This document shows positions 2,298 through 56,498 of a stretch of 64,000 nt of DNA, one piece after another. The stretch's first letter is position 1, and every line of letters starts with the position of its first letter. Position numbers and translations under genes: made by a program. The notes under the pieces were generated by a model. That model did no database searches. It was given only the letters and a program-made list of their open reading frames with translations, and had not been told where the DNA came from. Source of the stretch: Escherichia coli (GTDB taxonomy: Bacteria; Pseudomonadota; Gammaproteobacteria; Enterobacterales; Enterobacteriaceae); NCBI RefSeq assembly GCF_044324875.1, contig NZ_CP172185.1. The stretch is one strand, 5' to 3'.

Positions 2298-4751
2298 TTA
2301 AAAATCAGCCTGATTCGGGATCAGTTTTTGTATAGTGGCTGTTACGTATTTTGCCTGGTGAAGAGCGTCATCCAGAGCATTATGGCGCACGCCTTCGAAT
2401 GGAATTACGCTTCTGGCATTGAAGTCTGTGATTTTCCCCATCTCAACGATTGTGCGTACATCACGATCGTTGCTGTAATGCCACGGACAGGGGATGTCCA
2501 GACGTTCGTATGAGGTGCGCAAAATTGCGTTATCGAACGTTGCGCCATTACCCCACACCTGAACGAATTTTTCATCAGAGTGTTCATTGACGAATTGCCG
2601 AAAACGCAAAAGGGCATCTTTCATTTTTACCTGGTCAGTTAAAATGGCAGCTCTGGCTTCGCTGGACTGCTTCAGCCACCATTCGATGGTGCCACCATCA
2701 GGAACAGCCCCTGTATTCATTGCGTCAGTCAGGCTGATAACGATATAAAATACCGGCCCGATTTCCCCTGTTTCCGGGTCGAAGAAAACCGCACCAATAA
2801 CTACTATGGGTGCATTGGTGTTGGCTCCCATTGTTTCAAGGTCGACTGACAGGTGATTCCATACTCTGCTGGTGGATGTGATTTCACGATGACCGTTCAT
2901 CTTAATTAAGGAATTTTCTGTTTCGCCAGTTTTATTATCGCTGGCGTGGCCCTGAGCGCCGCCAGTGTTCTCCTTGTGCGGATGCTCAGTGCCTTCCGTT
3001 TCCTCCGGATTTTTTTCCTGAGATTCAGCCTGATTTTCTCCATTGAATGTTTCCTGGTATGTTGCGTCACCCATTACTGAGCCACAATCAGGGCAGTTGC
3101 CGCCGCTGGTCTGACCGCAGGCGGTGCAGACTTTTTCCGGTTCCTGTTGCGCTACTGGCTCAGGTTGTTTCGTTTCTGGCTCGTTTTGTAACGCATTTTG
3201 GCTGTTTTGTTCCGCTTTCTGGTCGTTCTGTTCCGTTTCTTGCTGGTTCTGGTTCACTGAATCGCGAGTCTGGACTCCCTTAACCCATTTCAGATCATTC
3301 GGGTCGCTAATCCCTTCAACGAACTCACCACGCGAGGCCGCCAGTAATTTGTCTGCATCGACAGGATTTTTGGGCGGAATGTTTTTCCTAGCTTCATGGA
3401 GTTCTGCCCGCAGTTTCTGATATTTCGCATCAACAGAATTCACCTGCGGCTGAGCATCCAGCGGCTGCGTGTCCGGATGATGTTCAGTTGTATCCGGTTC
3501 CACTGTTTCAGTCGTTGGCTGTTCATCTGCCATTGCGCCAGACGGTTGCGGTTTTTCTTCATCATCCTGTTTTCCTTCTTCTGTTACACGCTGCGGCATT
3601 GGGGCAGAGGAACGACCGCAGGCAATATCCACGATTTCCGGATCAGGGTTGGCATGATCGGTTTCGGTCAGCACTTTATTCAAGTATTCGGTGACGCGCT
3701 GGGGCATAGCCTCTATACCAACCGGTGCTTCTTTCACGGAGGCAACCACGATGGCGCGGGAATAATCCATCCCGCCTGGCATGTTCAGAAAAGCCTTAAG
3801 GAAGACGGAGAAACAGGGATCATTTTCTGCGATAATTTCGTTAACACGTCTGGTATGTGAAGGATGCATGTTGTAAATATCCACATCCATCGAACGAGCC
3901 AGTTTTCCTGTAGCAACATCGAATGCCATTGACGCATTATCATGCACAAAACCTTCGCCGCGATCGGTAAGAATACCGCCGCCAGCGTTAGCGCCGGATG
4001 GTGTGCGACTGATGCGAGAAACACGATTTCCTTTCATCCACTCTTTTGTAAGCAGACCACGATCAGTGTAGTCAGCGTCCAGGTATGCTTCGATGAAGGA
4101 GGTCATCAGTCCCAGGTCTGAATTTACGGGGGCGGGAAAAACTTTGTCAGTGTCCCGCACCAGTTTGTACAAATCCCGAATCTCCAGCGGTTCGAGTTGC
4201 GCTGCTTTATTTGAGATGGCCAGCGCGGTAACGGCGGGAAGTTTTTCTTCCTGTGCGTTATGTAATGAGCGCAGTTCATCCCGCGAAACGTGCGTTACTG
4301 GTTTTTCGCCGCCGTGTTGCGCCAGCCAGCGAACAGGCAGAATCTGACCTGAAACCGGCAGAAGCATATTCTCCTCAATCTCAGTCATGTCTTCGCCATT
4401 AACATTGGTGTTGTCAGTGCTGGCTGGTTTGTCCTGCGCGGATGGCGGAGGCGCGATAAATATCATTGTGATGCCATCTTCGCCGCCTTTTTCATACCGG
4501 TTACAGAATTCGGTATCAAACACGCCTTCCGGTGGAAGGTCATCAACAACGGGCAAATGGACGCGAACAGGTTTTTTAAAGTCGTCTTCATCATAATCGT
4601 TATCATCCATTGCGGTAATGCAGCGGGAGATGGCAACAGATAATTTTTTTGCTGTAGTCCAGTAAAAACCACCTTTAATCCCAAGGCGTTTTCTGACTTT
4701 GTCATTTTTAGCTTCGCAATATAGCGCAAAAGTTTCTTTATCAGTGCTCAT
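2298..4751 (-). CDS. Large exonuclease with C-terminal DnaQ-like (DEDD) 3'-5' exonuclease domain; the type often annotated exodeoxyribonuclease VIII in E. coli prophages
   Basis: 817 aa ORF. C-terminal region has DLETMG...H...D motifs typical of DEDDh exonucleases. Central acidic/Gln-rich low-complexity region and an internal CxxC...CxxC zinc ribbon ([16 protein letters not shown]). Confidence 0.75.
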
Positions 4752-4870
4752 TGATAAACCTCATTGCTGTTTTAAGGTTGTGCGAATCCCTGCCATTGCT
4801 GGCATATAAGAATCGACCCTTATGTATTTATTAAGCTGAATGTCGTATTGGGTCAGTTATTTATTACAGC

Positions 4871-5092
4871 TCACCATGCCACCGCCTTTACAGGTAAACC
4901 ATCACGACCGAGGAAGACTTTAATCATGCGGTCAGTAATGCATGTTTTTGTAGTGAAATCACGGATATAAAGTTTTTGCTTTTCGATATTGTTTGCCGAG
5001 GCGATATATGTCCGGCCTTCGTAAATAACGTAATCGCCGGGAGTGACGCACTGGCGTGGTATTTCATCGGTTCCGAAGTGATGAGCAATCAT
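4871..5092 (-). CDS. Hypothetical small early protein (73 aa)
   Basis: ORF in the leftward early operon between the Rha-like gene and the exonuclease; no recognisable motif. Confidence 0.45.
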
Positions 5093-5137
5093 AATAATCT
5101 CCTTAATAATTTGTGATATGAAGGAAATTCCAGAAAA

Positions 5138-5692
5138 CTATTTAATACTCAGCAACTGCTCGACGGTCATATTTTTAATTGCGCCCCGGTTTATGAGAGT
5201 CCATCCCTGCTTTTCCAGATAAAAACGGAAAGTATCCAGAGTACAGACCAGTGCGCCATCAGGAACTGTTTCGGTGAATTTGATGTAGCCGTGTTCGTCG
5301 AAGCGGATAACCAGGGTGCGGCCATCACCCGGGATTATTTTGTCAGCGGGTGTGGTGTTATTCCGGCGCAGTTCTTCCTCCATGCGGTCGAACTCGGCAA
5401 TGTAGGCTTCCTTGAATGCAGCGGCCTTTTTGCCCGTGAAGCCCATCACAAGGAAAACGAAGCCGTTTTTGGTGATTTGGTACATTGGGAGTTTGCGTCC
5501 TGTTGAGTCGGTGTATTCGCTCGCCTTAAAATTAAGGGCAGTGAACTCAGCGGAGCAGTCCAGTAATTTTATTTTTTGGATAACATTGTCGTGACGCTTG
5601 CCAAAGAATTCCGCGATCGCAACAGACGTAGTGACAGCGCGACCATTTTCAATGGTTACGTCAGGGTGAGAAAGGGTAAGGGTAGTAGCCAT
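5138..5692 (-). CDS. Phage regulatory protein, Rha-like (185 aa from internal start)
   Basis: Track ORF 5138..5989; the ATG at 5692 is preceded by GGAGG with 8 nt spacing. Sequence from MATTLTLSHPDV...AIAEFFGKRHDNVIQKIKLL resembles the Rha family. A terminator-like hairpin sits inside the upstream extension. Confidence 0.65.
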   Translation of the reverse strand: MATTLTLSHPDVTIENGRAVTTSVAIAEFFGKRHDNVIQKIKLLDCSAEFTALNFKASEYTDSTGRKLPMYQITKNGFVFLVMGFTGKKAAAFKEAYIAEFDRMEEELRRNNTTPADKIIPGDGRTLVIRFDEHGYIKFTETVPDGALVCTLDTFRFYLEKQGWTLINRGAIKNMTVEQLLSIK

Positions 5693-5860
5693 AATGGCAG
5701 CCTCCACGTTGAGTATTGATAACTCACCACCGAGGCTTTCCACGACCATAATGGTGGTGAGACGTACAGGGGTGGAAATACCGGTCAACGTAGAACCCGG
5801 CCAGCCTTGCGGCTGCCCTGCACGCCCCACCATAATCTGAATGTGGCTGTGCTTCACGCA

Positions 5861-5884
5861 TAAAAAAACCGCCTGAGCGCGGTT
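5861..5884 (-). terminator. Rho-independent terminator-like hairpin on the minus strand
   Basis: Minus-strand AACCGC-GCTCAG-GCGGTT followed by a T-run; lies between dicF and the Rha-like gene. Confidence 0.5.
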
Positions 5885-6167
5885 GTGCGCTACGTTTGAC
5901 TTCGGGTTTCCACGCCCGGCACCCGGTTTATGAGGTGCAGGTGCACTATAATTCCACCCGTACTGGTTTTCAATAGCTACATTCAACATTTTCTCTTACC
6001 TTTCATCACCGAAGTGAACTTTGTTGATGCGGTGCCAGGTGCCTCCAGGTGACGTTAACCAGTTAACAATTAACGCCGGATACAGAGAATCCACCCATAA
6101 CTCTGTTTTTGGTTTTAACTGTTCCACGTGCGATCAGCCGCATTCACCACATCACAAAATTCACTTT

Positions 6168-6225
6168 AAAAAGGGCGGCAGAGCAGTCACGGAGTAAAAC
6201 TGATACCGCAAAACGTCACCAGAAA
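6168..6225 (-). ncRNA. dicF: DicF sRNA homolog (ftsZ-targeting sRNA of Qin-type prophages)
   Basis: Minus strand reads TTTCTGGTGACGTTTTGCGGTATCAGTTTTACTCCGTGACTGCTCTGCCGCCCTTTTT, nearly identical to the recalled K-12 DicF (one difference) and ending in its own terminator. Lies downstream of a DicA-like repressor as in Qin. Confidence 0.7.
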
Positions 6226-13215: not shown

Positions 13216-13451
13216 TTTTATGGATCACCTTTCTGATTGATTTCATATTGGCGAGGTGACGGGAGTTAAGTAGAATTGCTGCGGGTGCTTGAGGCTATCT
13301 GCCTCGGGCATGAACACCAACGGCAGATAGAGAAAAGCCCCAGTTAACATTATGCGTCCTGCAAGACGCTTAACATTAATCTGAGGCAGAATCTATGTCT
13401 AGCAAATGTAGGTTAGCCTCTTACGTGCCGAAAGGCAAGGAGAAGCAGGCT

Positions 13452-13607
13452 ATGAAGCAGCAAAAGGCGATGTTAGTCGCCCTGATCGTCATCTGTATTA
13501 CCGTCATTGTGACGGCACTGGTAACGAGGAAAGACCTCTGCGAGGTACGAATCCGAACCGGCCAGACGGAGGTCGCTGTCTTCACAGCTTACGAACCTGA
13601 GGAGTAA
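13452..13607 (+). CDS. hok: Hok/Gef-family membrane toxin (type I toxin-antitoxin)
   Basis: MKQQKAMLVALIVICITVIVTALVTRKDLCEVRIRTGQTEVAVFTAYEPEE (51 aa) closely resembles HokD/RelF. Track ORF 13395..13607 carries an in-frame upstream extension. Upstream leader has inverted repeats. Confidence 0.8.
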   Translation: MKQQKAMLVALIVICITVIVTALVTRKDLCEVRIRTGQTEVAVFTAYEPEE

Positions 13608-32682: not shown

Positions 32683-33426
32683 ATGACAGAGACAGAATCA
32701 GCGATTCTGGCGCACGCCCGGCGATGTGCGCCAGCGGAGTCGTGCGGCTTCGTGGTGAGAACGCCGGAGGGGGAAAGATATTTTCCCTGCGTGAATATCT
32801 CCGGTGAGCCGGAGGATTATTTCCGGATGGCTCCGGAGGACTGGCTGCGGGCAGAAATGCAGGGTGAGATTGTGGCGCTGGTCCACAGCCACCCCGGTGG
32901 TCTGCCCTGGCTGAGTGAGGCCGACCGGCGGCTGCAGGTGCAGAGTGATTTGCCGTGGTGGCTGGTTTGCCGGGGGACGATTCATAAGTTCCGCTGTGTG
33001 CCGCATCTCACCGGGCGGCGTTTTGAGCACGGGGTGACGGACTGTTACACGCTGTTCCGCGATGCCTATCATCTTGCAGGTATCGATTTGCCGGATTTTT
33101 ACCGACATGATGACTGGTGGAAATCAGGTCAGAATCTCTATCTTGACAATATGGAGGCGACTGGTTTTTACCGTGTCGCACTGACAGAGGCGCAGCCCGG
33201 CGACGTGCTGCTGTGCTGTTTTGGTTCATCGGTGCCGAATCATGCCGCCATTTACTGCGGCGACGGCGGGCTGCTGCACCATATTCCTGAACAACTGAGC
33301 AAACGAGAGAGGTATACCGACAAATGGCAGCGACGCACACACTCCCTCTGGCGTCACCGGGCATGGCACGCATCTGCCTTTACGGGGATTTGCAACGATT
33401 TGGCCGCCGCATCGACCTTCGTGTGA
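32683..33426 (+). CDS. K: Tail assembly protein K (NlpC/P60 plus MPN-like)
   Basis: Internal ATG at 32683 of track ORF 32641..33426; lambda gpK-like sequence (HSHPGG...). Confidence 0.8.
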   Translation: MTETESAILAHARRCAPAESCGFVVRTPEGERYFPCVNISGEPEDYFRMAPEDWLRAEMQGEIVALVHSHPGGLPWLSEADRRLQVQSDLPWWLVCRGTIHKFRCVPHLTGRRFEHGVTDCYTLFRDAYHLAGIDLPDFYRHDDWWKSGQNLYLDNMEATGFYRVALTEAQPGDVLLCCFGSSVPNHAAIYCGDGGLLHHIPEQLSKRERYTDKWQRRTHSLWRHRAWHASAFTGICNDLAAASTFV

Positions 33427-33971
33427 AAACGGGAGCCGAAGCCATCCGGGCGCTGGCCACGCAGCTCCCTGCGTTTCGTCAGAAACTGAGCGACGGCTGG
33501 TATCAGGTGCGTATTGCCGGGCGTGATACAGGCGAAAACGAATTATCAGCCCGTCTTAATGAACCGCTGGCAAATGGTGCCGTGATCCACATCGTGCCGC
33601 GTCTGGCGGGAGCCAAACGTGGTGGTGTGTTTCAGGCAGTGCTGGGCGCGGCGCTGATTGCGGTGGCATGGTGGAACCCTGCAGGCTGGCTGGGGGCTGC
33701 GGCTTTATCGGGCATGTATGCGGCAGGGGCCAGTATGGTGCTCGGTGGTGTGGCGCAGATGCTGGCACCGAAAGCCAGAATGCCCGGAGTATCAGCCACG
33801 GATAACGGCAAACAGAACACCTATTTCTCCTCACTGGATAACATGGTTGCCCAGGGGAATGCTCTGCCCGTTCTGTACGGTGAAATGCGCGTGGGGTCAC
33901 GGGTAATTTCGCAGGAGATCAGCACAGCGGATGAGGGGGATGGCGTCCGGGTTGTGGTGATTGGTCGCTGA
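33324..33971 (+). CDS. I: Tail assembly protein I
   Basis: 215 aa starting MAATHTLPLASPGMARICLYGDLQRFGRR; lambda gpI-like. Confidence 0.8.
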   Translation: MAATHTLPLASPGMARICLYGDLQRFGRRIDLRVKTGAEAIRALATQLPAFRQKLSDGWYQVRIAGRDTGENELSARLNEPLANGAVIHIVPRLAGAKRGGVFQAVLGAALIAVAWWNPAGWLGAAALSGMYAAGASMVLGGVAQMLAPKARMPGVSATDNGKQNTYFSSLDNMVAQGNALPVLYGEMRVGSRVISQEISTADEGDGVRVVVIGR

Positions 33972-34031: not shown

Positions 34032-35474
34032 ATGGGTAAAGGCAGCAGTAAGGGGCATACCCCGCGCGAAGCGAAGGACAACCTGAAGTCCACGCAGTTG
34101 CTGAGTGTGATCGATGTCATCAGCGAAGGGCCGATACAAGGACCGGTGGATGGATTAAAAAGCGTGCTGCTGAACGGTACGCCGGTGCTGGACAGTGAGG
34201 GGAATACCAATATATCCGGCGTCACGGTGGTATTCCGGGCCGGTGAGCAGGAGCAGACGCCGCCGGAGGGATTTGAATCCTCCGGCTCCGAGACGGTGCT
34301 GGGTACGGAAGTGAAGTACGACACGCCGATTACCCGGACCATCACGTCGGCAAACATCGACCGTCTGCGCCTGACCTTCGGTGTGCAGGCACTGGTGGAA
34401 ACCACCTCAAAGGGGGACCGGAATCCGTCGGAAGTCCGCCTGCTGGTTCAGATACAGCGTAACGGTCGCTGGTTAACGGAAAAAGACATCACCATTAAGG
34501 GCAAAACCACCTCGCAGTATCTGGCCTCGGTGGTGGTGGGTAACCTGCCGCCGCGCCCGTTCAGTATCCGGATGCGCAGGATGACGCCGGACAGCACCAC
34601 AGACCAGCTGCAGAACAAAACGCTCTGGTCGTCATACACCGAAATCATCGATGTGAAACAGTGCTACCCGAACACGGCACTGGTCGGTGTGCAGGTGGAT
34701 TCGGAGCAGTTCGGCAGCCAGCAGGTGAGCCGTAATTATCATCTTCGCGGGCGCATTCTGCAGGTGCCGTCGAACTATAACCCGCAGACGCGGCAATACA
34801 GCGGTATCTGGGACGGAACGTTTAAACCGGCATACAGCAACAACCCGGCCTGGTGTCTGTGGGATATGCTGACCCATCCGCGCTACGGCATGGGGAAACG
34901 TGTTGGCGCAGCGGATGTGGATAAATGGGCGCTGTATGTCATCGGCCAGTACTGCGACCAGTCAGTGCCGGACGGCTCTGGTGGCACGGAGCCGCGCATC
35001 ACCTGTAATGCCTGGCTGACCACACAGCGTAAGGCGTGGGATGTGCTCAGTGATTTCTGCTCGGCGATGCGCTGTATGCCGGTATGGAACGGGCAGACGC
35101 TGACGTTCGTGCAGGACCGACCGTCGGATAAGGTGTGGACCTATAACCGCAGTAATGTGGTGATGCCGGATGATGGCGCGCCGTTCCGCTACAGCTTCAG
35201 CGCCCTGAAGGACCGCCATAATGCCGTTGAGGTGAACTGGAGTGACCCGGATAACGGCCAGGAGACGGCGACAGAGCTTGTGGAGGACACGCAGGCCATT
35301 GCCCGTTACGGTCGTAACGTCACGAAGATGGATGCCTTTGGCTGTACCAGCCGGGGGCAGGCACACCGCGCCGGGCTGTGGCTGATTAAAACAGAACTGC
35401 TGGAGACGCAGACCGTGGATTTCAGCGTGGGTGCTGAAGGGCTTCGCCATGTACCGGTGCAAAATGGCATCTGA
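34032..35474 (+). pseudogene. J: Host specificity protein J, N-terminal fragment (interrupted by IS21-family insertion at about 35458)
   Basis: MGKGSSKGHTPREAKDNLKSTQLLSVIDVISEGPIQGPVDGLKSVLLNGTPVLD matches lambda J. The reading frame runs into the IS and stops at 35474. Confidence 0.85.
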
Positions 35475-35659
35475 ATCGATCGCAGTTTGGCATTCGAATC
35501 GATCATGATTTGGCATCCATCTCCGATCACAGTTTGGCATCACAATCGATCACGATTTGGCATGCTTCCGATCATTGATTGGCATCCTGCCAGTCACTCC
35601 GGGAATTAACTCTTTTCACCACAGTCTCCATTGCCGTGTTTAAACCAGTGGAGACGTCA

Positions 35660-37225
35660 ATGTCCAGAAAGAGAAAATCCAGGAGCACTATGGAAACCTG
35701 TTTTAAGATCCTTCAGCTCAAGTTCGACAAGAAGCTGACTAACCGTTGTATCGGACTGACGTTACACATCAGCGCCTCAACCGTTTTTGAGGTTCTTGCC
35801 CGCTTCAAAGCCTCTTCTCTGTCATGGCCATTACCTGCTGATATATCCCATGACACGCTGGAGAAACTCATTTTTCCGCCCAAAGACACCTTTGCATCAG
35901 AGCTTGTAATGCCTGACATGTTGTACTTCGATACGGAAATGAGAAAACCAGGTGTGACGCGGCAACTGTTGTGGATGGAATACAAGGCACAGGCGGGTAA
36001 CAAAGCGATGGGATACTCGCACTTCTGCCGTTGCTACCGGGAGTGGAAAAAAACGCGACGTCTCTCCATGCGCCAGGAGCATCGTGCCGGCGAAAAGCTT
36101 TTTATCGACTTCTGTGGTCCTACGGTTCCTGTTATTAATCCGGACACCGGTGAGATACGCCGCGTGGCAATCTTCGTGGCCGTAATGGGGGCGTCCAACT
36201 ATACCTACGTTGAAGCGTGCGAAGGTCAGGACATGATGTCATGGTTAAATGCCCACAGCCGTTGCCTGACCTTCCTGGGCGGCGTACCGAAGCTGCTCAT
36301 CCCCGATAACCTCAGAAGCGCAGTGAAAAAGGCCGATCGATATGAGCCTGTCATCAACGACAGTTATCAGGCACTGGCTGAGCACTATGGCACGGTTATC
36401 ATCCCGGCCCGACCACGCAAACCTAAAGATAAACCAAAAGCAGAAAACGGCGTCCTCATCGTTGAACGATGGCTTCTTGCCCGCATCCGTAATGAAACCT
36501 TCCACACGCTCAGGGCGCTGAATGCGCGCCTTAGGGAGTTACTGACAGACATGAATAACCGGCCAATGAAGGGGTACGGCAATCAAACCCGTGCAGAACG
36601 CTTCCGCATACTGGATGCGCCAGCACTCTCTCCGCTGCCTCTGGCACCTTATGAATACACGGAATACAAAGCTGTGAAGGTTGGCCCTGACTACCACGTT
36701 GAATATGCCCGTCACTGGTACTCCGTTCCACACGAACTGGTCGGTCAGCGTCTGTCACTGAAGGCGGGGCAGTCGGTGGTACAGCTCTGGCACAAGGGGC
36801 AGTGTGTGGCGCAACATCCGCGCAGCACACATGAATATAAACACACAACCAATCCGCTTCACATGCCAGAGCGCCACCGGCAGCACGGGACATGGACACC
36901 GGAACGCCTGATCGAGCAGGGAAAACGTACGGGCCCGTCCACAGGCCGGGTGGTTGAATCCATGCTGAAGGCAAAACCCCATCCGGAACTGGCTTATCGT
37001 GCAGTTCTGGGGCTGCTGGCACTTCAGAAAAAATACGGCCCGGAACGGCTGGAAAAGGCCTGTTACGTTGCCCTGCACTATAACGCCCCTGACAGACGCT
37101 TTATCGACAATCTGCTGCGTCACCATCGGGAGAACCTGGAGCTTCCATTATCCCGCCAGGGCGAACAACATCCGGCATATGCTTCAGAGCATGAAAACCT
37201 GCGTGGTCCGGGCTACTACCACTGA
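35660..37225 (+). CDS. istA: IS21-family transposase IstA
   Basis: Internal ATG at 35660 with GGAG RBS; about 521 aa with N-terminal HTH and DDE-type core. Confidence 0.85.
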   Translation: MSRKRKSRSTMETCFKILQLKFDKKLTNRCIGLTLHISASTVFEVLARFKASSLSWPLPADISHDTLEKLIFPPKDTFASELVMPDMLYFDTEMRKPGVTRQLLWMEYKAQAGNKAMGYSHFCRCYREWKKTRRLSMRQEHRAGEKLFIDFCGPTVPVINPDTGEIRRVAIFVAVMGASNYTYVEACEGQDMMSWLNAHSRCLTFLGGVPKLLIPDNLRSAVKKADRYEPVINDSYQALAEHYGTVIIPARPRKPKDKPKAENGVLIVERWLLARIRNETFHTLRALNARLRELLTDMNNRPMKGYGNQTRAERFRILDAPALSPLPLAPYEYTEYKAVKVGPDYHVEYARHWYSVPHELVGQRLSLKAGQSVVQLWHKGQCVAQHPRSTHEYKHTTNPLHMPERHRQHGTWTPERLIEQGKRTGPSTGRVVESMLKAKPHPELAYRAVLGLLALQKKYGPERLEKACYVALHYNAPDRRFIDNLLRHHRENLELPLSRQGEQHPAYASEHENLRGPGYYH

Positions 37226-37241
37226 CAGAAGGAACAACAGT

Positions 37242-37997
37242 ATGAGTGATAACCTGTTAAACAAACTGACCCAACTGAAACTCCCGGCGATGGCCGGGAG
37301 CCTGATACGGCAGCGGGAAACGCCTCAGACCTACGACGAACTGTCGTTCGAGGAAAGGCTGACGCTGCTGGTTGATGACGAGCTTCTGAGCAGGGAAAAC
37401 AGCCGTGTGGCACGGTTGAGAAAAAATGCCGGCCTGAAATACCAGGCAACACCGGAAGGGCTGCGCTATCCGGCCTCAAGAGGTCTGCGGGCTGAACAGA
37501 TGAGAGAACTGCTGAACGGCCACTACATAACCCACAGGAAAAACCTGCTGATAACCGGTCCGACAGGATGTGGCAAGAGCTGGATAGCCAATGCGCTGGG
37601 CGAACAGGCATGTCGACAGAAACACAGCGTCCGGTACTGTAGAACCGGGCGATTACTGGAACAACTGGCTCAGGGACGTGTTGATGGCAGCTGGCTGAAA
37701 TATCTGAAACAGTTGCAAAAAATACAGGTTCTAATCCTGGACGATCTGGGGCTGGAACAGTTAAGTAACGCCCAGTGTAATGACCTTCTGGAGCTCATAG
37801 AGGATCGTTACGGACAAAGCAGCACGATAGTGGTAAGCCAGTTCCCGGTAGATAAATGGCATGGTCTGATGGAGAACCCAACAACAGCAGATGCCATCCT
37901 GGACAGACTGGTACATAACTCACACCGAGTGGTCCTTCAGGGAGAGTCACTGAGGAAAAATCCCCCGGTAGTGGAAAGCAGCGAAAAAACGCGTTAA
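37242..37997 (+). CDS. istB: IS21-family ATP-binding helper IstB
   Basis: MSDNLLNKLTQLKLPAMAGSL...LITGPTGCGKSWIANALG (Walker A)...LILDDLG (Walker B). Confidence 0.85.
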   Translation: MSDNLLNKLTQLKLPAMAGSLIRQRETPQTYDELSFEERLTLLVDDELLSRENSRVARLRKNAGLKYQATPEGLRYPASRGLRAEQMRELLNGHYITHRKNLLITGPTGCGKSWIANALGEQACRQKHSVRYCRTGRLLEQLAQGRVDGSWLKYLKQLQKIQVLILDDLGLEQLSNAQCNDLLELIEDRYGQSSTIVVSQFPVDKWHGLMENPTTADAILDRLVHNSHRVVLQGESLRKNPPVVESSEKTR

Positions 37998-38096
37998 AAA
38001 GCGGTAGAAAAAGTTAAGTTCCCGGTTGATCGAATGGATGCGAATCGCTGATCGGACTTCGATGCCAATCCGTGATCGAATAGAGCGGAATACGCA

Positions 38097-40219
38097 TACC
38101 GGGCGATGTCATTGAAATCTGTGATGATGACTATGCCGGTATCAGCACCGGTGGTCGTGTGCTGGCGGTGAACAGCCAGACCCGGACGCTGACGCTCGAC
38201 CGTGAAATCACGCTGCCATCCTCCGGTACCACGCTGATAAGCCTGGTTGACGGAAGTGGCAATCCGGTCAGCGTGGAGGTTCAGTCCGTCACCGACGGCG
38301 TGAAGGTAAAAGTGAGCCGGGTTCCTGACGGCGTTGCCGAGTACAGCGTGTGGGGGCTGAAGCTGCCGACGCTGCGCCAGCGCCTGTTCCGCTGCGTGAG
38401 TATCCGTGAGAACGACGACGGCACGTATGCCATCACTGCCGTGCAGCATGTACCGGAAAAAGAGGGCATCGTGGATAACGGGGCACACTTTGACGGTGAC
38501 CAGAGCGGCACGGTGAATGGTGTCACGCCGCCAGCAGTGCAGCACCTGACTGTCGAAGTCACCGCAGACAGCGGGGAGTATCAGGTACTGGCCCGCTGGG
38601 ACACGCCGAAGGTGGTGAAAGGCGTGAGTTTCATGCTTCGCCTGACCGTGGCAGCGGATGACGGCAGTGAGCGGCTGGTCAGCACGGCCCGGACGACGGA
38701 AACCACATACCGCTTCAGGCAGCTGGCGCCGGGGAACTACAGGCTGACAGTCCGGGCAGTAAATGCCCGGGGGCAGCAGGGAGACCCGGCGTCGGTATCG
38801 TTCCGGATTGCCGCACCGGCAGCGCCGTCGCGGATTGAGCTGACGCCGGGCTATTTTCAGATAACCGCCACGCCGCATCTTGCCGTTTATGATCCGACGG
38901 TGCAGTTTGAGTTCTGGTTCTCGGAAAAGCGGATTACCGATATCAGGCAGGTTGAAACCACAGCCCGTTATCTTGGTACCGGAAGTCAGTGGCTTGTCTC
39001 CGGCCAGAATATTAAACCTGGCCATGATTATTACTTTTATATCCGCAGTGTTAACACTGTCGGTAAATCGGCATTCGTGGAGGCAGTCGGTCGGGCGAGT
39101 AATGATCCTGCCGGTTACCTTAATTTTTTCAGGGGGGCGATAAATAAAACGCATCTGGGACGGGAGATCAATGAACGCATTGATGCCTCTGCACGGCGCA
39201 CTGAAGTTGAGCAACTGGAGAATGCGATTAACCGCGAAATGACGCAGCTGGAGAATGCGATTAACCGCGAAATGACGCAGCTGGAGAAAGATGTGAGGCA
39301 GCGTGCGGAGCGTGATATCGCAGAGGTGACGAAAAAAATCACGGCGTCTGAAAACAGCATAACGGAACTGGTGGCGAAAAAGAGCGGTGAACAGTCGCTG
39401 GCCATTGCGAAAGTCGACAGGAAAGTTGACAGCGTGAGCAGTGAAATCCGGCAGACAGTAAGCAGGAGCACGGAGGAGAACAGCCGACAGATAGCGCAGG
39501 TCAGGCAGTATGTTGATGATAAAAGTGCGCAAATAAGTACTGTTGTGGCGAAAAAGAGCGGTGAACAGTCAATGGCCATTGCGGAAGTTGACAGAAAAGT
39601 TGACAGGATGGGCAGCGAAATCCGGCAGACAGTAAGCAGGAGCACGGAGGAGAACAGCCGACAGATAGCGCAGATCAGACAGTATGTTGATGATAAGGGA
39701 AGTCAGATCAAACAGAGCACGGATAAAAAACTGGGATCCTGGAATGCCAGCATTGAGCAGATACAGAAAGTTCAGGAGGACACGCGCCGGAACCTGAACA
39801 GCATGTGGGCTGTGAAGCTGCAGCAGACACGGGATGGACGTCTCTATATTGCAGGTATTGGTGCCGGAATCGAAAATACGTCTGACGGAATTCAGAGTCA
39901 GATCCTGATGCAGGCAGATCGTATTGCGATGATTAACCCGGAAAATGGCAATACAACACCTTTGTTTGTGGCTCAGGGTGATCAGCTGTTCATGAATGAT
40001 GTTTTCATGAAAAAACTGACCGTGGATTTTGCCAGAGTGACGGGAGATATCCGGTCAGATAATTTTCATTCCGGTAGTCCGGGGTGGCGTTTATCAAGAA
40101 ACGGCAGCCTTGAAATTAACTCAGGAAGGCCCGGCGCAGGCCGCCTGTTTTTCAATGGCGAGCGAATCGACGTATATGACGATAACAATGTGTTAAGAGT
40201 ACGACTGGGGAGACTGTAA
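38097..40219 (+). pseudogene. J: Host specificity protein J, C-terminal fragment (distal tip diverges from lambda and carries tandem duplications)
   Basis: Continues the lambda-J-like sequence [43 protein letters not shown]. Track ORF 38159..40219. Confidence 0.85.
39214..39718 (+). repeat. Tandem duplications inside the J distal region: 2 x 33 bp and 2 x about 174 bp
   Basis: CTGGAGAATGCGATTAACCGCGAAATGACGCAG twice ([11 protein letters not shown] x2). A larger unit starting GTGGCGAAAAAGAGCGGTGAACAGTC repeats at about 39371 and 39545 with about 90 percent identity. Confidence 0.7.
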
Positions 40220-40479
40220 TGTTCGGAGTCCGGGTATGGCGCAAAGGGCGCCTTGTGACACATGAAATAAACCCAACAGGGGTGCTGGATGTGATCACTG
40301 AAGGGACGGGGCAGCGTTCTTATACTCCTTTGCAGGGCTGGCGTCTGGAAGTCTGTTCACCGGCCATTCTGATTAACGGTCAGGGAAGTCATACCAGTGC
40401 CAGTGTATCCGGCTGGACAGTGCACTATGCCAACACAAGCTGGCTAAGACCCGTGCTGGTCATGATAAGGGGGATCTGA
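40219..40479 (+). CDS. Hypothetical protein (86 aa), translationally coupled to J
   Basis: Start overlaps the J stop (TAATG); no known motif. Confidence 0.5.
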   Translation: MFGVRVWRKGRLVTHEINPTGVLDVITEGTGQRSYTPLQGWRLEVCSPAILINGQGSHTSASVSGWTVHYANTSWLRPVLVMIRGI

Positions 40480-41141
40480 TGTTTGCACTTAAATTAACTG
40501 ATGAGCGGGGGAGAGAATGGATATCACCTGTTGCGCCGCCACTGAACCTTGTGCGCCGTTTTCATTTCACACTGAGTGCGCGTGATGCGGTGATGCAGTT
40601 TATCGACACCGGGGTGCCGACGAATTATCGTTGCGTGATTTTTATTAAACAGATAAGCGGTAATCAGTCCTTCCATGGTGAAATGGTTCAGCTTAACGGT
40701 ACCTGGCAGTATGACATTTTCAGCGCTGGTACAGGGCAGGAGCCGGGCATGGAACAGGACAGCACATATGTTGTTTATGTTTTTGCCAACATGGTGAATG
40801 TATGGCCGCAATGGGGAATACAGTTGTGCGACAGTCATGGCAGGGTGGTCTGGAACACGGAAATGCTGCCACTGGAAGTAAAAATGACGCGAATATGGGA
40901 AAAGGATGTACCGATCAGTGTGGGACATGATGTGGCCGTAATGCCGGGGTGTACCCAGTGGACGACAGTTCAGGAAGGGGAGAGTTATTACTGGTATACC
41001 GCCAGTTTTAATGCCAGAAACTCACAGTTATGGCGTCAGTCAACTTTTGCTGAAGATAACGTAGCGGCGCCCAATGATAATTCAGGTGTTGTTAATAACC
41101 TCTGTTATTACATAAATGCAGAAATTTATGATGCGTACTGA
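40479..41141 (+). CDS. Hypothetical protein (220 aa) downstream of J
   Basis: Start overlaps the previous stop (TGATG); Trp/Tyr-rich; no family recognised. Confidence 0.5.
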   Translation: MFALKLTDERGREWISPVAPPLNLVRRFHFTLSARDAVMQFIDTGVPTNYRCVIFIKQISGNQSFHGEMVQLNGTWQYDIFSAGTGQEPGMEQDSTYVVYVFANMVNVWPQWGIQLCDSHGRVVWNTEMLPLEVKMTRIWEKDVPISVGHDVAVMPGCTQWTTVQEGESYYWYTASFNARNSQLWRQSTFAEDNVAAPNDNSGVVNNLCYYINAEIYDAY

Positions 41142-41162: not shown

Positions 41163-41408
41163 ATGAAAATAATCGTCTGCACTTTTTTGCTGTTTCTTGT
41201 ATCAGGTTGCGCGGGGTACCGTTCCGTTACGGAGAGAGTCCGGTGCACCGGTGTGCTGAGTCCCGGGGTTTTACAGCGAGCTTATACGGTAGATCTTACA
41301 GGGAAAATAGAAACGAAAAGCGGCACTGTGTATAAAGTATCAGCTCCGAGATTTTATGGTCAGTGGGTGAGTGAAGATATGTTTACGAAAGTTTCGTGCG
41401 TGAAGTAA
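41163..41408 (+). CDS. Small predicted lipoprotein (81 aa); possible Cor-like superinfection-exclusion protein
   Basis: MKIIVCTFLLFLVSGC lipobox; located between J and the side tail fibre, where cor-type genes sit in some lambdoid phages. Function is inferred from position only. Confidence 0.5.
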   Translation: MKIIVCTFLLFLVSGCAGYRSVTERVRCTGVLSPGVLQRAYTVDLTGKIETKSGTVYKVSAPRFYGQWVSEDMFTKVSCVK

Positions 41409-41483: not shown

Positions 41484-42812
41484 ATGGCGGCTGTAAAAAT
41501 TTCAGGCGTGCTCAGGGACGGAACCGGAAAACCGGTACCGGGATGCATTATTGAGCTGAAAGCGAAGAGAACCAGCGAGACAGTCATCGCCACGACAGTG
41601 GCTTATGGCATGCCGGAAGAGACGGGGAGTTACAGTATGGATGTGGAGCCAGGAATATACAGGGTGACACTCAATACAGAAGGTTACCGTCCTTCGTATG
41701 TGGGAGATATCGTGGTCAGGGAGGATTCTTCACCGGGAACACTGAATAAATTTCTGATGGAGATGGAAGATGCTCCTTATTATCCGAAGGCGTTGTCAGA
41801 GCTGGAGGCTGTGGTGCAGTCCATACTGCACAGAGCAGAGTCCGCGGCATCTGAGGCGGAGGAAGCCCGGAAGCGAGCAGCATCTGCCCGGGGACCACGA
41901 GGAGAGAAAGGGGATACCGGCGCTCGTGGTGAAAGAGGCATTACCGGGCCACAGGGGCCAAAAGGTGAAACAGGAGCACGTGGCCCGGCAGGACCACAGG
42001 GACCAAAAGGTGAAACAGGTGAACGCGGTCCGGCAGGTCCACAGGGACCAAAGGGCGATACAGGTGAACGCGGCCCGGCAGGTCCACAGGGACCAAAAGG
42101 TGAAACAGGTGCACGTGGTCCGGAAGGTCCACAGGGAGCAAAAGGTGAAACAGGTGAACGCGGCCCGGCAGGTCCACAGGGAGCAAAGGGCGAAACAGGT
42201 GCACGTGGTCCGGAAGGCCCTCAGGGTCTGAAGGGAGAAAAGGGTGAGCGAGGAGAAAAAGGCCCTAAGGGGGATAAAGGAGATCCGGGAGGTCCACAGG
42301 GACCAAAAGGTGAAACAGGTGAACGTGGCCCGGCAGGTCCACAGGGACCAAAAGGTGAAACAGGTGAACGTGGCCCGGCAGGTCCACAGGGACCAAAGGG
42401 CGATACAGGTGAACGCGGTCCGGCAGGTCCACAGGGGCCAAGAGGGTATACAGGTGAACGCGGGCCGACAGGTCTACAGGGGCCAAGAGGGTATACAGGT
42501 GAACGCGGGCCGGCAGGTCCACAGGGGCCAAGAGGAGAAGCGGGGCGGCCAGCGAGCGTCGGAAGTGTTTATTCCGTGGGGTCTTATGTTCTGGGGATCA
42601 TAGAACGAAATCATGAGATAACAAATACCCGTCAAATACCCGGGTATCGTATCAGACAGGCCGTTATTGTGTCGTCGTCATCGGATAAACTTACAGATAT
42701 CCGCTTTTTATTTGGCAATCCTATGCTTGGTACATGGATGTTATGCACAACTAACATGGCGGTGAATAATATCAGTGGGACGATTTGGGGCCTGTTTCAG
42801 AGAATACTGTGA
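41484..42812 (+). CDS. stf: Side tail fibre protein with collagen-like Gly-X-Y repeats
   Basis: N-terminal tail-fibre domain ([63 protein letters not shown]) followed by about 70 G-X-Y triplets. Confidence 0.85.
41884..42546 (+). repeat. Collagen-like triplet repeat array (tandem about 45 bp units) within the tail fibre gene
   Basis: Repeated GGTCCACAGGGACCAAAAGGTGAAACAGGTGAACGCGGCCCGGCA-type units encoding [15 protein letters not shown]; explains the many antisense ORFs in the track here. Confidence 0.8.
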
Positions 42813-42827
42813 CAGGGGGAGAAATGA

Positions 42828-42950
42828 ATGAAGGTCGATAAAATCACGTCACCAGTGTGGGCTGACAGGGGTCATACGACCATAAACTGTATAGTGAAGT
42901 TTTCAGACGCGGAAACAGAATGTGTATTTACAGCAAGTGCGGATGATCCG
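42828..42950 (+). pseudogene. tfa: Tail fibre assembly protein, N-terminal 41 codons (interrupted by IS66-family insertion)
   Basis: ATG at 42828 with GGGGGAG RBS; MKVDKITSPVWADRGHTTINCIVKFSDAETECVFTASADDP then a stop inside the IS end. Confidence 0.6.
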
Positions 42951-43032
42951 TAACCGGCTCATTTAAACCGTCTGGTCTGTTTCCTCCGGCTCTACAAAAA
43001 TAATGTCCATCATTTTTAATGGACACTATCGT

Positions 43033-43680
43033 ATGAAACACCGGACCTGGATCACTGAAGCTTTACGTCTTCACTTTGAAGAACATTTACCCCGGGTTGT
43101 GGCCGGGCGTCGCCTGGGTGTACCAAAATCAACAGTTTGTAGTATGTTCGTGCGCTTTCGGAGAGCTGGCCTTTCGTGGCCTTTGCCCGCAGGCATGTCG
43201 GAGCAGGAACTTGATGCCTGCCTTTACGGACAATTTTCCACGGTACCAGTCGTACGTCCTGAAAGCACCGTTATATCCGAAGCCCCCGTGGTAAAAAAAC
43301 GTCCCCGGCGGCCCAACTTCCCTTATGAGTTTAAAATCGCCTTAGTGGAGCAGTCACTGCAGCCCGGAGCCTGTGTGGCGCAGATCGCCCGGGAAAACGG
43401 AATCAACGATAACCTGCTCTTCAACTGGCGCCATCAATACCGGAAAGGTGGCCTGCTGCCTTCCGGAAAAAATATGCCGGCACTGCTTCCCGTGACGTTA
43501 ACGCCGGAGCCGGATAATAAAATCCCGGCCCCCGCACAGGAACCAGAGCAGATAAATACACCGTCCGACAGTCTGTGTTGTGAGCTGGTTCTGCCGGCCG
43601 GAACTCTCAGGCTTAAAGGTAAACTGACGCCGGCGTTATTACAGACACTTATCCGCGAAATAAAAGGGAGCAGCCACTGA
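43033..43680 (+). CDS. tnpA: IS66-family accessory protein TnpA (orf1)
   Basis: Internal Met of track ORF 43003..43680; HTH-like N-terminus. Confidence 0.7.
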   Translation: MKHRTWITEALRLHFEEHLPRVVAGRRLGVPKSTVCSMFVRFRRAGLSWPLPAGMSEQELDACLYGQFSTVPVVRPESTVISEAPVVKKRPRRPNFPYEFKIALVEQSLQPGACVAQIARENGINDNLLFNWRHQYRKGGLLPSGKNMPALLPVTLTPEPDNKIPAPAQEPEQINTPSDSLCCELVLPAGTLRLKGKLTPALLQTLIREIKGSSH

Positions 43681-44027
43681 TGATATCTCTCCCTGCAGGT
43701 TCGCGTATCTGGCTGGTTGCAGGTATCACCGATATGCGAAATGGCTTTAACGGCCTGGCATCAAAAGTTCAGAACGTCCTGAAGGATGACCCGTTCTCCG
43801 GACACCTGTTCATCTTCCGCGGACGCCGGGGTGACCAGATAAAAGTGTTGTGGGCTGACAGTGACGGACTGTGCCTCTTCACCAAACGCCTGGAGCGGGG
43901 CCGCTTCGTCTGGCCAGTCACCCGTGACGGCAAGGTGCACCTTACTCCGGCTCAGTTATCCATGCTTCTTGAAGGTATCAACTGGAAGCACCCGAAACGA
44001 ACGGAACGCGCTGGAATCCGCATATAA
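43680..44027 (+). CDS. tnpB: IS66-family TnpB (orf2)
   Basis: 115 aa; MISLPAGSRIWLVAGITDMRNGFNGLASKVQNVLKDDPFSGHLFIFRGRRGDQIKVLWAD is the typical IS66 Orf2. Confidence 0.85.
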   Translation: MISLPAGSRIWLVAGITDMRNGFNGLASKVQNVLKDDPFSGHLFIFRGRRGDQIKVLWADSDGLCLFTKRLERGRFVWPVTRDGKVHLTPAQLSMLLEGINWKHPKRTERAGIRI

Positions 44028-44046
44028 CCCGTTGTAAAGTGAGGAT

Positions 44047-45618
44047 ATGGACACCTCACTTGCTCATGAGAACGCCCGCCTGCGGGCACTGTTGCAGACG
44101 CAACAGGACACCATCCGCCAGATGGCTGAATACAACCGCCTGCTCTCACAGCGGGTGGCGGCTTATGCTTCCGAAATCAACCGGCTGAAGGCGCTGGTTG
44201 CGAAACTGCAACGTATGCAGTTCGGTAAAAGCTCAGAAAAACTTCGTGCAAAAACCGAACGGCAGATACAGGAAGCACAGGAGCGAATCAGCGCACTTCA
44301 GGAAGAAATGGCGGAAACGCTGGGTGAGCAATATGACCCGGTACTGCCATCCGCCCTGCGCCAGTCTTCAGCCCGTAAACCGTTACCGGCCTCACTTCCC
44401 CGTGAAACCCGGGTTATCCGGCCGGAAGAGGAATGCTGTCCTGCCTGTGGTGGTGAACTCAGTTCTCTGGGATGTGATGTGTCAGAGCAACTGGAGCTTA
44501 TCAGCAGCGCCTTTAAGGTTATCGAAACACAACGTCCGAAACAGGCCTGTTGCCGGTGCGACCATATCGTGCAGGCACCAGTACCTTCAAAACCCATTGC
44601 ACGCAGTTATGCCGGAGCGGGGCTTCTGGCCCATGTTGTCACCGGGAAATATGCAGACCATCTGCCGTTATACCGCCAGTCAGAAATATACCGTCGTCAG
44701 GGAGTGGAGCTGAGCCGTGCCACACTGGGGCGCTGGACAGGTGCTGTTGCTGAACTGCTGGAGCCGCTGTATGACGTCCTGCGCCAGTATGTGCTGATGC
44801 CCGGTAAAGTCCATGCTGATGATATCCCCGTCCCGGTCCAGGAGCCGGGCAGCGGTAAAACCCGGACAGCCCGGCTGTGGGTCTACGTCCGTGATGACCG
44901 TAACGCCGGTTCACAGATGCCCCCGGCGGTCTGGTTCGCGTACAGTCCGGACCGGAAAGGTATCCATCCACAAAATCACCTGGCCGGTTACAGCGGTGTG
45001 CTTCAGGCCGATGCTTACGGTGGTTACCGGGCGTTATACGAATCCGGCAGAATAACGGAAGCCGCGTGTATGGCTCATGCCCGGAGAAAAATCCACGATG
45101 TGCATGCAAGAGCGCCCACCTACATCACCACGGAAGCCCTGCAGCGTATCGGTGAACTGTATGCCATCGAGGCAGAGGTCCGGGGCTGTTCAGCAGAACA
45201 GCGTCTGGCGGCAAGAAAAGCCAGAGCCGCGCCACTGATGCAGTCACTGTATGACTGGATACAGCAACAGATGAAAACACTGTCGCGTCACTCAGATACG
45301 GCAAAAGCGTTCGCATACCTGCTGAAACAGTGGGATGCACTGAACGTGTACTGCAGTAATGGCTGGGTGGAAATCGACAACAACATCGCAGAGAACGCCT
45401 TACGGGGAGTGGCCGTAGGCCGGAAAAACTGGATGTTCGCGGGTTCCGACAGCGGTGGTGAACATGCGGCGGTGTTGTACTCGCTGATCGGCACATGCCG
45501 TCTGAACAATGTGGAGCCAGAAAAGTGGCTGCGTTACGTCATTGAACATATCCAGGACTGGCCGGCAAACCGGGTACGCGATCTGTTGCCCTGGAAAGTT
45601 GATCTGAGCTCTCAGTAA
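44047..45618 (+). CDS. tnpC: IS66-family transposase TnpC (orf3)
   Basis: 523 aa with N-terminal coiled coil, Cys cluster CPACGG...CCRCDH, and DDE-type core. Confidence 0.85.
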
Positions 45619-45648
45619 ATATCAATACGGTTCTGACGAGTCGCTTAC

Positions 45649-46110
45649 GATGATCCTGAGTCTTACGGTCGTGAAATATTTGAAGCCTGCATAAGAGGTG
45701 ATGCAGGGCCGGTAGGTGAGTACCGGGCAAATGATGATATGGCTGTGGAAGAAGCACGCAGGATGAAAAACGCGGAGATAAATGCCTGGCGTGATGCGAT
45801 GGAGGCGTCAGGGTATGTTTTTGAGCACAGAGGACGGAAATGGGATTATGGAAAGGAAACCATGACACGTCTTGGAATGTCGGCATCAGCGGCCAGAGGC
45901 GGTGTGTTGCCGGAAGGATTTTTCTGGACGGACGCAGAGAATAATGATGTACCGATGACGGCAGATGAACTGATATCCCTGAGTGATGCTGCTGGTAAAG
46001 CGATGTTCAGGAAAGGCCTTGAAATACATATAAGGCAAAGGGAGATGAAAAAGGCAATAGCAGAACTGAGTGACAGTGAAACCATTCTGGCGTACAGGGT
46101 TGGATGGTGA
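45649..46110 (+). pseudogene. tfa: Tail fibre assembly protein, C-terminal fragment
   Basis: In frame with the N-terminal fragment once the IS and one TSD copy are removed (..ADDPESYGREIFEACIRGDAGPVGEY..); track ORF 45739..46110. Confidence 0.6.
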
Positions 46111-46127
46111 AACTGATAAAAAAACCC

Positions 46128-46160
46128 CTCTGAAAATTCTGTCAGAGGGGGGCAAGGATC
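46128..46160. terminator. 9 bp perfect hairpin CCCCTCTGA/TCAGAGGGG with flanking A-run (T-run on minus strand)
   Basis: Located just after tfa; geometry favours minus-strand termination. Confidence 0.4.
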
Positions 46161-46336
46161 TATATTTATTATGCGGTAATGCTTTCACTCCGGTAATTAA
46201 TTTCAGTGATTAACTGCTTTCGATCAATAAAGGAATTGCAAAAAGGTGATCTTGTTCACGACATTGTGGATGATAATATGCCTGATGTCTGAATCCGGAA
46301 ACAGTGATCTGGCGGGTTTCATGTGAAGTTGACGGA

Positions 46337-46368
46337 TAAAAAATCCGCACGACCAGACAGACGTGCGG
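46337..46368 (-). terminator. Rho-independent terminator downstream of the ykgJ-like gene
   Basis: CCGCACG-loop-CGTGCGG hairpin, followed on the minus strand by a T-run. Confidence 0.5.
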
Positions 46369-46475
46369 TTTACGAAATTCGTAACAAGAGGCTTTTCTAG
46401 GGATCACGTGGTGCGTGCCACGTGAAATTTTTGTAGCGCAAAATGTGTAATGTGTAAATACAAGGAAGGAAAAAG

Positions 46476-46805
46476 TTAAATCGGTGGAAGTCCATACCGG
46501 GAACGTGCACGGTTACATGCTTCGTTTTCAATACCATTTTCACCAGACATGGCAAATTCCCGGCACGTTGATGAACGGTTTTCGTAGATGGTACAGCTCG
46601 CTTCTTTACCTGGTGTTCCTGCAAGGGCAATACATCTGGGGTTTTTCTGGTTTGTACCGATCATGCATCGGTGCAAAGGCGATACTTGTTCAGTAAGTCT
46701 GGCTGGAATGGTGCCGCCAGCATCGTCGGCTTCGGCCCAGTAAAAAGAGACGCGGAAAAATGCACAACAGGCACCACACGTTATGCATGGATTTGGATTG
46801 CTCAT
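46476..46805 (-). CDS. YkgJ-family (UPF0153) Cys-rich putative metal-binding protein; cargo gene at the prophage right end
   Basis: [31 protein letters not shown]...[16 protein letters not shown] closely resembles recalled E. coli YkgJ (CxxCGxCC motif). Confidence 0.75.
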
Positions 46806-47167
46806 AATTCACCACAGCTATAAATTATAAAGAAAACCGCAGCATGTCGTATGCAAGAACGTGCTGCAGCTGGCTGGTTAACTTTCGATAGTGCGAGTAT
46901 TGAATGATTTCCAGCCGTTACCGATTTTATATAACTGCAGTGGAATTATTCAACACAGGCAAAACGGAATAAGCTGAGAAAAAAGCGTACTTTCCCAATC
47001 TGGGGCAAATCACGTCTGAATGACACCTGACAACAGATGGTGGCCTCAAGAAGGCTTGGAATATTCTTCTTTAATGTTATGTAAATTATTGATTTTTCGT
47101 GTACGATTTTAAGACATTTATTCCAAGAAAAATTTTTAACTCTTTGATTTTTCGACTCTGTATCATC

Positions 47168-55870: not shown

Positions 55871-56498
55871 TATGTATTCCCTTGTGATTATAATCTTCAT
55901 GAATATATCAATAAGTGCCGTTATCCAAAAAAAAGCACATTTGGATACTATTCTATGAAGTTCATTTTATTTTAAAGATTACATGTAACAAATATATTTA
56001 AAAGATTTCAAAATGTTTCTAATCTATTTAATATAATTCAGAATTATGAATTCTAAATATAAATATTCATGAAAATTATAAATGTATATCAATATGTTAT
56101 GAGTTGAGCGGAAACATAGGGGGTATCAATGATTGTTGCGCCAAACGGCTGGTGTGATCACGCGCACATTAATGAAGGCATAAAAAAAGCCGGCATCATG
56201 CCGGCCCAAAAAAAATAAACAAGACGATAAAAGGCTAATAACGGAAGCATCATGACACAGAATAATAAAAAGGTATAATTGTAATCAGTGCTAATATATT
56301 GATTGAATGAATTAATAAAGCCGATATCAAAGATAAATAAAATCGCTCAAAACGATTTTTCCTGTATTCACTGCCGTTGCGCAAAAATTATCTATTTGTT
56401 CAAAAAATGATTGAGTCTTGACTGGCTCATCCAATGTGGAAAAATGTGACTTTTATCACATAATAGTACTAAGTCTGAATTTTCCGGGTTATCTCAAA

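Follow-up and report, generated by a model that had tools for sequence, protein, structure and literature searches.

What does a gene encode when its middle is built from tandem repeats and it lies in the tail module of an Escherichia coli prophage, is such an array prone to recombination, and are the numerous antisense open reading frames (ORFs) recorded across it real genes? These questions are raised by the gene at 41484..42812 of a 64,000-nucleotide stretch of E. coli DNA (contig NZ_CP172185.1 of assembly GCF_044324875.1, one strand), referred to throughout as the window. We consider it highly probable that the array codes for the shaft of a trimeric side tail fibre belonging to a lambda-like prophage, and that this shaft is a collagen-like triple helix. 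The parts of the gene that bear on this reading are listed below.

41484..42812, plus strand: predicted collagen-like side tail fibre protein, Stf homologue, EPclC-like; intact ORF of 442 amino acids; best PHROG match phrog_366 'tail fiber protein' (E 2.6e-103)
41490..41882, plus strand: N-terminal domain of the PfN / gpStfN collar type, residues 3-133 (PF08400; PDB 9e7m)
41892..42287, plus strand: collagen run 1, 44 uninterrupted Gly-X-Y triplets, residues 137-268 (triplet parsing)
41949..42226, plus strand: tandem array 1, 6.2 copies of a 45-bp unit (Tandem Repeats Finder (TRF), 87% matches; 90-bp higher-order period, 89%)
42227..42284, plus strand: divergent, non-tandem, Lys-rich collagen segment of 58 bases between the arrays (TRF), conserved in 11 of the 11 relatives described below
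42285..42539, plus strand: tandem array 2, 5.7 copies of a 45-bp unit (TRF, 90% matches)
42288..42290, plus strand: extra Gly codon GGA, register break GDP-G-GPQ (triplet parsing)
42291..42551, plus strand: collagen run 2, 29 triplets, residues 270-356 (triplet parsing); a fusion of Col2-type and Col3-type units relative to alleles that bear a non-collagen knob
42552..42809, plus strand: C-terminal non-collagen domain of 86 amino acids, residues 357-442, with no match in Pfam, PHROGs or NCBIfam, nor in PDB when queried by alignment profile

The Gly-X-Y region comprises 73 triplets at 41892-42551 and matches PF01391 Collagen over residues 137-356 (127.7 bits, Pfam cut-off 27.2), with X positions rich in Pro and Glu and Y positions rich in Lys, Arg, Thr and Gln. 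The initial annotation had placed about 70 consecutive triplets at 41884-42546, a location that proved essentially right (off by 8 and 5 bases) with a count that held, but the triplets are not consecutive, the register being broken by one residue after triplet 44. The motif at the break, G-D-P-G-G-P-Q-G at residues 266-273, fits the pattern G-X-P-G-G-P-X-G exactly, a pattern that each of the 11 relatives, phage PhiR12_2 and P-EibA ORF-401 share. The near-identical tandem 45-bp units that had been described for the underlying DNA fared similarly; the 45-bp periodicity was found, but in two arrays rather than one, and the pairwise identity of the 11 full units averages only 87% (range 73-100%).

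The 45-bp units span about 530 of the 660 bases of the Gly-X-Y region. A search for a 32-nt core of the unit, allowing up to three mismatches, returned 8 matches as against 0 in 100 shuffles, and a chance origin of the periodicity is excluded; the same search found no further copies of the unit elsewhere in the window with which those of the array could recombine. Within array 2 lies the longest exact direct repeat, of 63 nt (42290 and 42335), which provides a substrate for recombination. In array 1 units of two types, …GET GER GPA and …GET GAR GPE, follow one another alternately, hence the 90-bp higher-order repeat. Across the 11 units, none of the ten first and second positions of the Gly codons varies, while all five third positions do, and this restriction of variation to third positions is therefore a signature of selection for Gly at each third residue.

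The assignment to the side tail fibres, also made in the initial annotation, is supported because the N-terminus matches the gpStfN collar and the gene is located 3' of a lambdoid tail module. PF08400 ('Prophage tail fibre N-terminal') was matched at residues 3-133 with 137.9 bits (Pfam cut-off 26.6), and residues 3-94 match chain Ta, 'Tail fiber protein', of the Ur-lambda virion structure PDB 9e7m with an E value of 3.4e-30. The gene sits 3' of the fragments of J in the tail module, and its relatives are annotated with the same gene order. The N-terminal domain's final ~30 residues are rich in Ala and Glu and are joined directly to the collagen region, with no PCoil segment between them, and a Pfam search of the protein gave no match to the PF06820 PfC domain.

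A megablast search with the fibre gene matched 23 of 5426 complete E. coli genomes, and 22 of those 23 have the C-terminal domain as well as the first part of the DUF4376 gene that follows it. Lengths were compared across the window gene and 11 fetched relatives, plus one database protein. None of the other full-length genes, 12 in all, is as short as that of the window, at 1329 bp; they measure 1374, 1590, 1671, 1734, 1761, 1806, 1815 or 1851 bp, and every difference in length is a multiple of 9 bp. AR_0085 (relative L002, NZ_CP029741.1) carries the same prophage at the same chromosomal site as the window; sequence identity in the flanks is 99.8% upstream of the array, 100% across the C-terminal domain plus the 5' part of the DUF4376 gene, and 99.0% downstream. 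Against this background, array 1 of AR_0085 is longer by 2 units (90 bp) and array 2 by 7 units (315 bp), a sum of 405 bp or 9 x 45 as read from the assemblies. Among the relatives run 1 up to the break holds 34, 44 or 54 triplets, that is, it changes in 90-bp steps; we observed it to vary only by 10 triplets (30 residues) at a time, and array 2 by single 45-bp units.

The relatives also differ in domain content. A non-collagen knob of ~90 residues (ARGQLLNGDLNRL…WSEWKELGAQ) stands between two collagen blocks in 8 of the 11 relatives and in the database protein P0005, whereas the alleles of the window, TUM1886 and AR_0085 have no knob. The knob (ARGQLLNGDLNRLGRVTDQGDYYQ…WSEWKELGAQ), noted in L001, L003-L009 and L011, occupies residues ~369-458 of the L001 gene, with collagen on both sides. 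It gave no Pfam or PDB match. When run 2 of the window was compared with the gene of TUM9803 (L008), its first 146 nt matched the start of Col2 and its last 105 nt the end of Col3, each with 2 mismatches. From this alignment, the Col2/Col3 junction of the window would correspond to an in-frame loss of 351 bp, including the knob, with the junction falling inside a shared unit; for each event, we infer whether it was a loss or a gain. The whole-unit difference from the near-isogenic AR_0085, the lengths in multiples of 9 bp and the presence or absence of the knob among relatives all bear out the earlier description of the array as recombination-prone.

The repeat also seems to affect how these genes are recorded. 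RefSeq calls the AR_0085 fibre gene an incomplete pseudogene (4001-5290, 'missing C-terminus'), whereas the locus at 4001-5734 reads as one intact ORF of 577 amino acids with 118 triplets, so that the pseudogene call looks like an annotation artefact due to the repeat. Nearly all of the database proteins with this C-terminal domain (P0001-P0004, P0010-P0025) are partial and come from short contigs that start inside the collagen repeat; short-read assemblies therefore evidently break at the array, and full-length alleles are under-represented.

That E. coli prophages encode side tail fibres of a collagen-like kind, with whole-triplet length polymorphism and a G-G interruption, has been known since 2012. 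Ghosh 2012 sorted the collagen-like proteins of E. coli prophages into architectures EPclA to EPclD, and reported both differences in Col length in multiples of three and the interruption G-X-P-G-G-P-X-G (PMC3368898). In the same study EPclA was a trimer of dumbbell shape, with a collagen circular dichroism spectrum and a transition at 42 °C, and its PfC was a trimerisation module (PMC3368898).

The closest described relative of the window protein is the EPclC prototype, P-EibA ORF-401 (AAF63232, ECOR-9), with 45% identity by BLASTP (E 9e-80). Common to both are a PfN domain followed by collagen without PCoil, the G-G break, a C-terminal domain other than PF06820 and a DUF4376 protein encoded by the next gene (ORF-191A, of 191 amino acids, in P-EibA; likewise 191 amino acids in the window when whole). 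They differ in that the window protein has one fused collagen region of 220 residues, composed of clear 45-bp tandem units at the DNA level, whereas ORF-401 has two (117 and 75 residues) with a non-collagen module between them, and in that their C-terminal domains are only ~28-30% identical. The two-Col form is also that of 8 of the 11 relatives and of P0005, the window, L010 and L002 having the single fused region; the middle module is the ~90-residue knob in the closest relatives of the window and a Pf2-like segment in P-EibA. Judged by sequence, the fibre gene is of the known EPclC / P-EibA ORF-401 type, with a different C-terminal subtype, and public databases already hold identical C-terminal fragments (P0011). 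A homologue in phage PhiR12_2, for which E. coli K-12 MG1655 is the recorded host, is 42.6% identical over 99% of the length.

EPclA and EPclB (E. coli O157:H7 ECs2717 and Z1483) and phi24B gp61 share with the window protein the arrangement of a PfN collar, collagen and a small C-terminal globular domain, and these proteins show length polymorphism in multiples of three residues, as does the window family. In contrast, they carry an Ala/Ser-rich coiled coil of 109-116 residues (PCoil) before the collagen and a PF06820 PfC after it, both of which the window protein lacks, and their DNA is too divergent from the window gene for megablast. In Ur-lambda, the collar at the gpV-gpM junction is a dodecamer of gpStfN (residues 1-91), and four trimeric side fibres extend from it; the trimeric gpStf side fibre speeds adsorption (PMC12617516). 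The window gene shares with gpStf the homologous collar domain and the same position after J. However, lambda Stf has an alpha-helical coiled-coil shaft with a hinge and a gp37-like OmpC-binding distal domain and is followed by Tfa, while the window protein has a collagen-like shaft, an unrelated tip of 86 residues and a DUF4376 partner; no Tfa-type (PF02413) chaperone was found after the fibre gene, the downstream gene matching DUF4376 (PF14301) only in Pfam. Beyond phages, BclA of Bacillus anthracis (PDB 1wck) was matched with an E value of 4.5e-09 over the collagen part only, and has tandem triplet repeats like those of the window. BclA and streptococcal Scl are, however, cell- or spore-surface proteins with other terminal domains (a C1q/TNF-like head, an LPXTG anchor), and the likeness is limited to Gly-X-Y. 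Work by Sylvestre et al. in 2003 is said to have found that the number of BclA repeats sets the length of the surface filament.

The C-terminal domain has few relatives. A word-index search with it returned only 4 partial E. coli clusters, and an exhaustive phmmer search of 1.84 billion cluster representatives returned one true 50% cluster and a fragment; the further phmmer matches P0006-P0009 were judged to be spurious multi-stretch matches, P0006, the only one inspected, being a repetitive protein. A profile of three C-terminal subtypes recovered 21 proteins, all from Escherichia and mostly partial. Identity to the PhiR12-type and P-EibA-type C-termini is 28-34%, with the motifs Y-x-x-G … G-[ST]-W … L-F-Q-R in common; the P-EibA type was not recovered by the single-sequence search of the 1.84 billion representatives, and the profile that did recover it already had it in its source alignment. 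The domain may be distantly PfC2-like. An AlphaFold2 model from an alignment of 11 sequences was all-beta and unusable (mean predicted local distance difference test score 51.7, predicted template modelling score 0.36).

On the preferred reading, three chains of 442 amino acids would be held on the tail by N-terminal collar domains homologous to gpStfN, and their 219 Gly-X-Y residues would, by analogy with EPclA, wind into a triple-helical rod with a calculated length of ~63 nm (0.286 nm per residue), each 45-bp or 15-residue unit contributing ~4.3 nm. The rod would be stabilised by Pro at X together with many Glu, Lys, Arg and Asp residues, and the one-residue G-G break could be a flexible point ~38 nm from its N-terminal end. 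By analogy with the PfC module of EPclA, the 86-residue C-terminal domain probably nucleates trimerisation. It may also carry or recruit the distal binding function, possibly with the DUF4376 protein, either by binding a receptor itself or by serving as a docking site for that protein. Whole units would be gained or lost in frame through replication slippage or unequal homologous recombination, which may also excise an entire domain flanked by collagen blocks, so that fibres come to differ in length and domain content. The calculated rod is ~63 nm in the window and ~101 nm in the near-isogenic AR_0085. A bolder proposal goes further, and we regard it as improbable: that the 45/90-bp array is a contingency locus which, by unit gain and loss and by in-frame loss of the knob, adjusts how far the side fibre reaches to how thick the O-antigen or capsule layer of the host is, with the G-G break an obligatory hinge and the C-terminal domain a new trimerising or receptor-binding fold.

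Whether the fibre is put to use in this strain depends on the state of the prophage around it, the relevant features of which are as follows.

33324-33971: gpI, tail module
34032-35474 and 38159-40219: J domains (split), tail module
about 35458-38098: insertion sequence (IS) element of the IS21 family in J, with IstA (rve/Mu-transposase C domains) and IstB, ORFs 35579-37225 and 36999-37997; bounds from BLAST against a relative with the region intact, not base-exact
40479-41141, plus strand: phrog_425 'membrane associated protein', 220 amino acids (PHROG)
41163-41408, plus strand: Cor-like lipoprotein, 81 amino acids (phrog_1119, E 8e-7; NCBIfam lamb_exclu_cor 28.4 bits, just under the cut-off of 31)
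42828..42949, plus strand: 5' part of the DUF4376 gene (PF14301; phrog_1141 'tail fiber protein'), with its 3' part at 45657-46110
42950..45648, plus strand: IS66-family element of 2699 bp (tnpA, tnpB, ISCro1-like transposase, with identical proteins so annotated in relatives), flanked by 8-bp target duplications GATGATCC at 42942-42949 and 45649-45656

The left end of the prophage adjoins tRNA-Ser(CGA) at 869-958 (Rfam / ARAGORN), which is likely the attachment site, and the right flank of the window is 99.3% identical to E. coli chromosomes. The J gene is split by the IS21-family element, and the prophage therefore cannot make its central fibre. The prophage is thus defective, its intact fibre gene is therefore probably idle in this strain, and the fibre is probably not used here. 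Relatives of the fibre gene are found in Eib-type prophages, with YadA-like immunoglobulin-binding genes downstream; a YadA-like / Eib gene follows the DUF4376 gene in most of them (compared in L003, L004, L006, L007 and L009-L011), whereas the window, like AR_0085, has at 46111-46820 only ~700 bp with a YkgJ-like ORF (46476-46805, minus strand) before the conserved chromosome. The phrog_425 and Cor-like genes lie between J and the fibre gene, where other relatives have lom. Copies of the IS66-family element are found at other positions around the tail-fibre module in relatives L001, L002, L005 and L008. Rfam matches elsewhere in the window were to C4 antisense RNA, isrK and DicF in the early region (5750-6224), to the sok antitoxin RNA of a hok/sok-type module (13283-13457) and to rseX (56182-56271) in the chromosomal flank.

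Several of these points weigh against a working, length-variable collagen fibre. With both J and the DUF4376 gene split by IS elements the prophage is defective, and the array may now drift. The copy numbers are taken from assemblies, in which tandem arrays may be collapsed or expanded by the assembler. The synthesis, trimerisation and virion assembly of this protein are predictions from its sequence, and as the fold of the C-terminal domain was not predictable, its putative trimerising or receptor-binding role is put forward by analogy alone. The partner is moreover a DUF4376 protein, which gave no match in PDB, and not a lambda-type Tfa, and the distal end may therefore work differently from that of lambda Stf.

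The alternative that survives best, and to which we give a real though clearly lesser weight, is that the fibre gene is a decaying remnant in a cryptic prophage, without fibre function, and that the losses of units and of the knob are neutral decay. The IS-split J and DUF4376 genes and the position of the window allele as the shortest of the full-length genes compared are in keeping with it. However, the fibre ORF is intact, and all 73 of its triplets keep Gly. The IS66-family insertion is also recent, because the rejoined halves of the DUF4376 gene (42828-42949 and 45657-46110, 576 bp) encode a product 100% identical to the intact protein WP_000861763.1, and a knob-less allele of 457 amino acids is also found in TUM1886, beside J and DUF4376 genes that are annotated as intact. 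In any case, the decay reading is about the condition of this strain's gene today, and leaves the coding content of the array undisputed.

It is far less credible that the protein is a surface collagen mimic or adhesin of the Scl, Lcl or BclA kind, expressed by the lysogen from a prophage 'moron' and not part of the virion. NCBIfam matches to SclB (188.5 bits), Lcl (164.2 bits) and SclA (133.7 bits) point that way, as do the neighbours in this prophage family, which include surface proteins expressed by lysogens (Eib/YadA-like and Lom in relatives, the Cor-like lipoprotein in the window). Those scores, however, fall far under the respective cut-offs of 325, 500 and 400 bits and cover the Gly-X-Y region only, while the N-terminus is a gpStfN collar, no hydrophobic leader or C-terminal LPXTG was seen by eye, and the gene occupies the stf position after J. 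With the Scl and Lcl scores below the NCBIfam cut-offs, a surface adhesin identity was rejected.

There remain the ORFs that overlap the array.

41941..42204, minus strand: antisense ORF of 87 amino acids, composition artefact of array 1 (ORF listing; stop counts)
42265..42531, minus strand: antisense ORF of 88 amino acids, composition artefact of array 2 (ORF listing; stop counts)
41770-42231 and 42244-42603, plus strand: ORFs in the +1 frame, with the same compositional cause (ORF listing; stop counts)

That these ORFs of 87, 88, 119 and 153 amino acids might be real overlapping genes can be dismissed almost entirely, as they follow mechanically from composition (T is 8% of the sense strand over the array, and the consensus unit is free of stops in 4 of the 5 non-coding frames), they merely translate the same repeat in other frames, and unit-to-unit variation respects the Gly-X-Y frame only. 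Within 41892-42551 the three plus frames hold 0 (the coding frame), 1 and 18 stops, and the minus frames 1, 1 and 2. The extra ORFs arise because T is rare on the sense strand and A, which every stop codon needs, is thus rare on the antisense strand. The proposal that the array explains the antisense ORFs was therefore correct; the stop counts and the low T content account for all four.

The significance of the locus beyond its correct annotation is small. Gene annotation is not warranted for the four extra ORFs that overlap the array, and, as AR_0085 exemplifies, the Prokaryotic Genome Annotation Pipeline (PGAP) can miscall repeat-bearing fibre genes as pseudogenes. For the biology of the family, the window and AR_0085 together constitute a clean natural case of whole-unit copy change in a prophage that is otherwise near-identical, and this pair could be used to study how the length of the fibre relates to adsorption.

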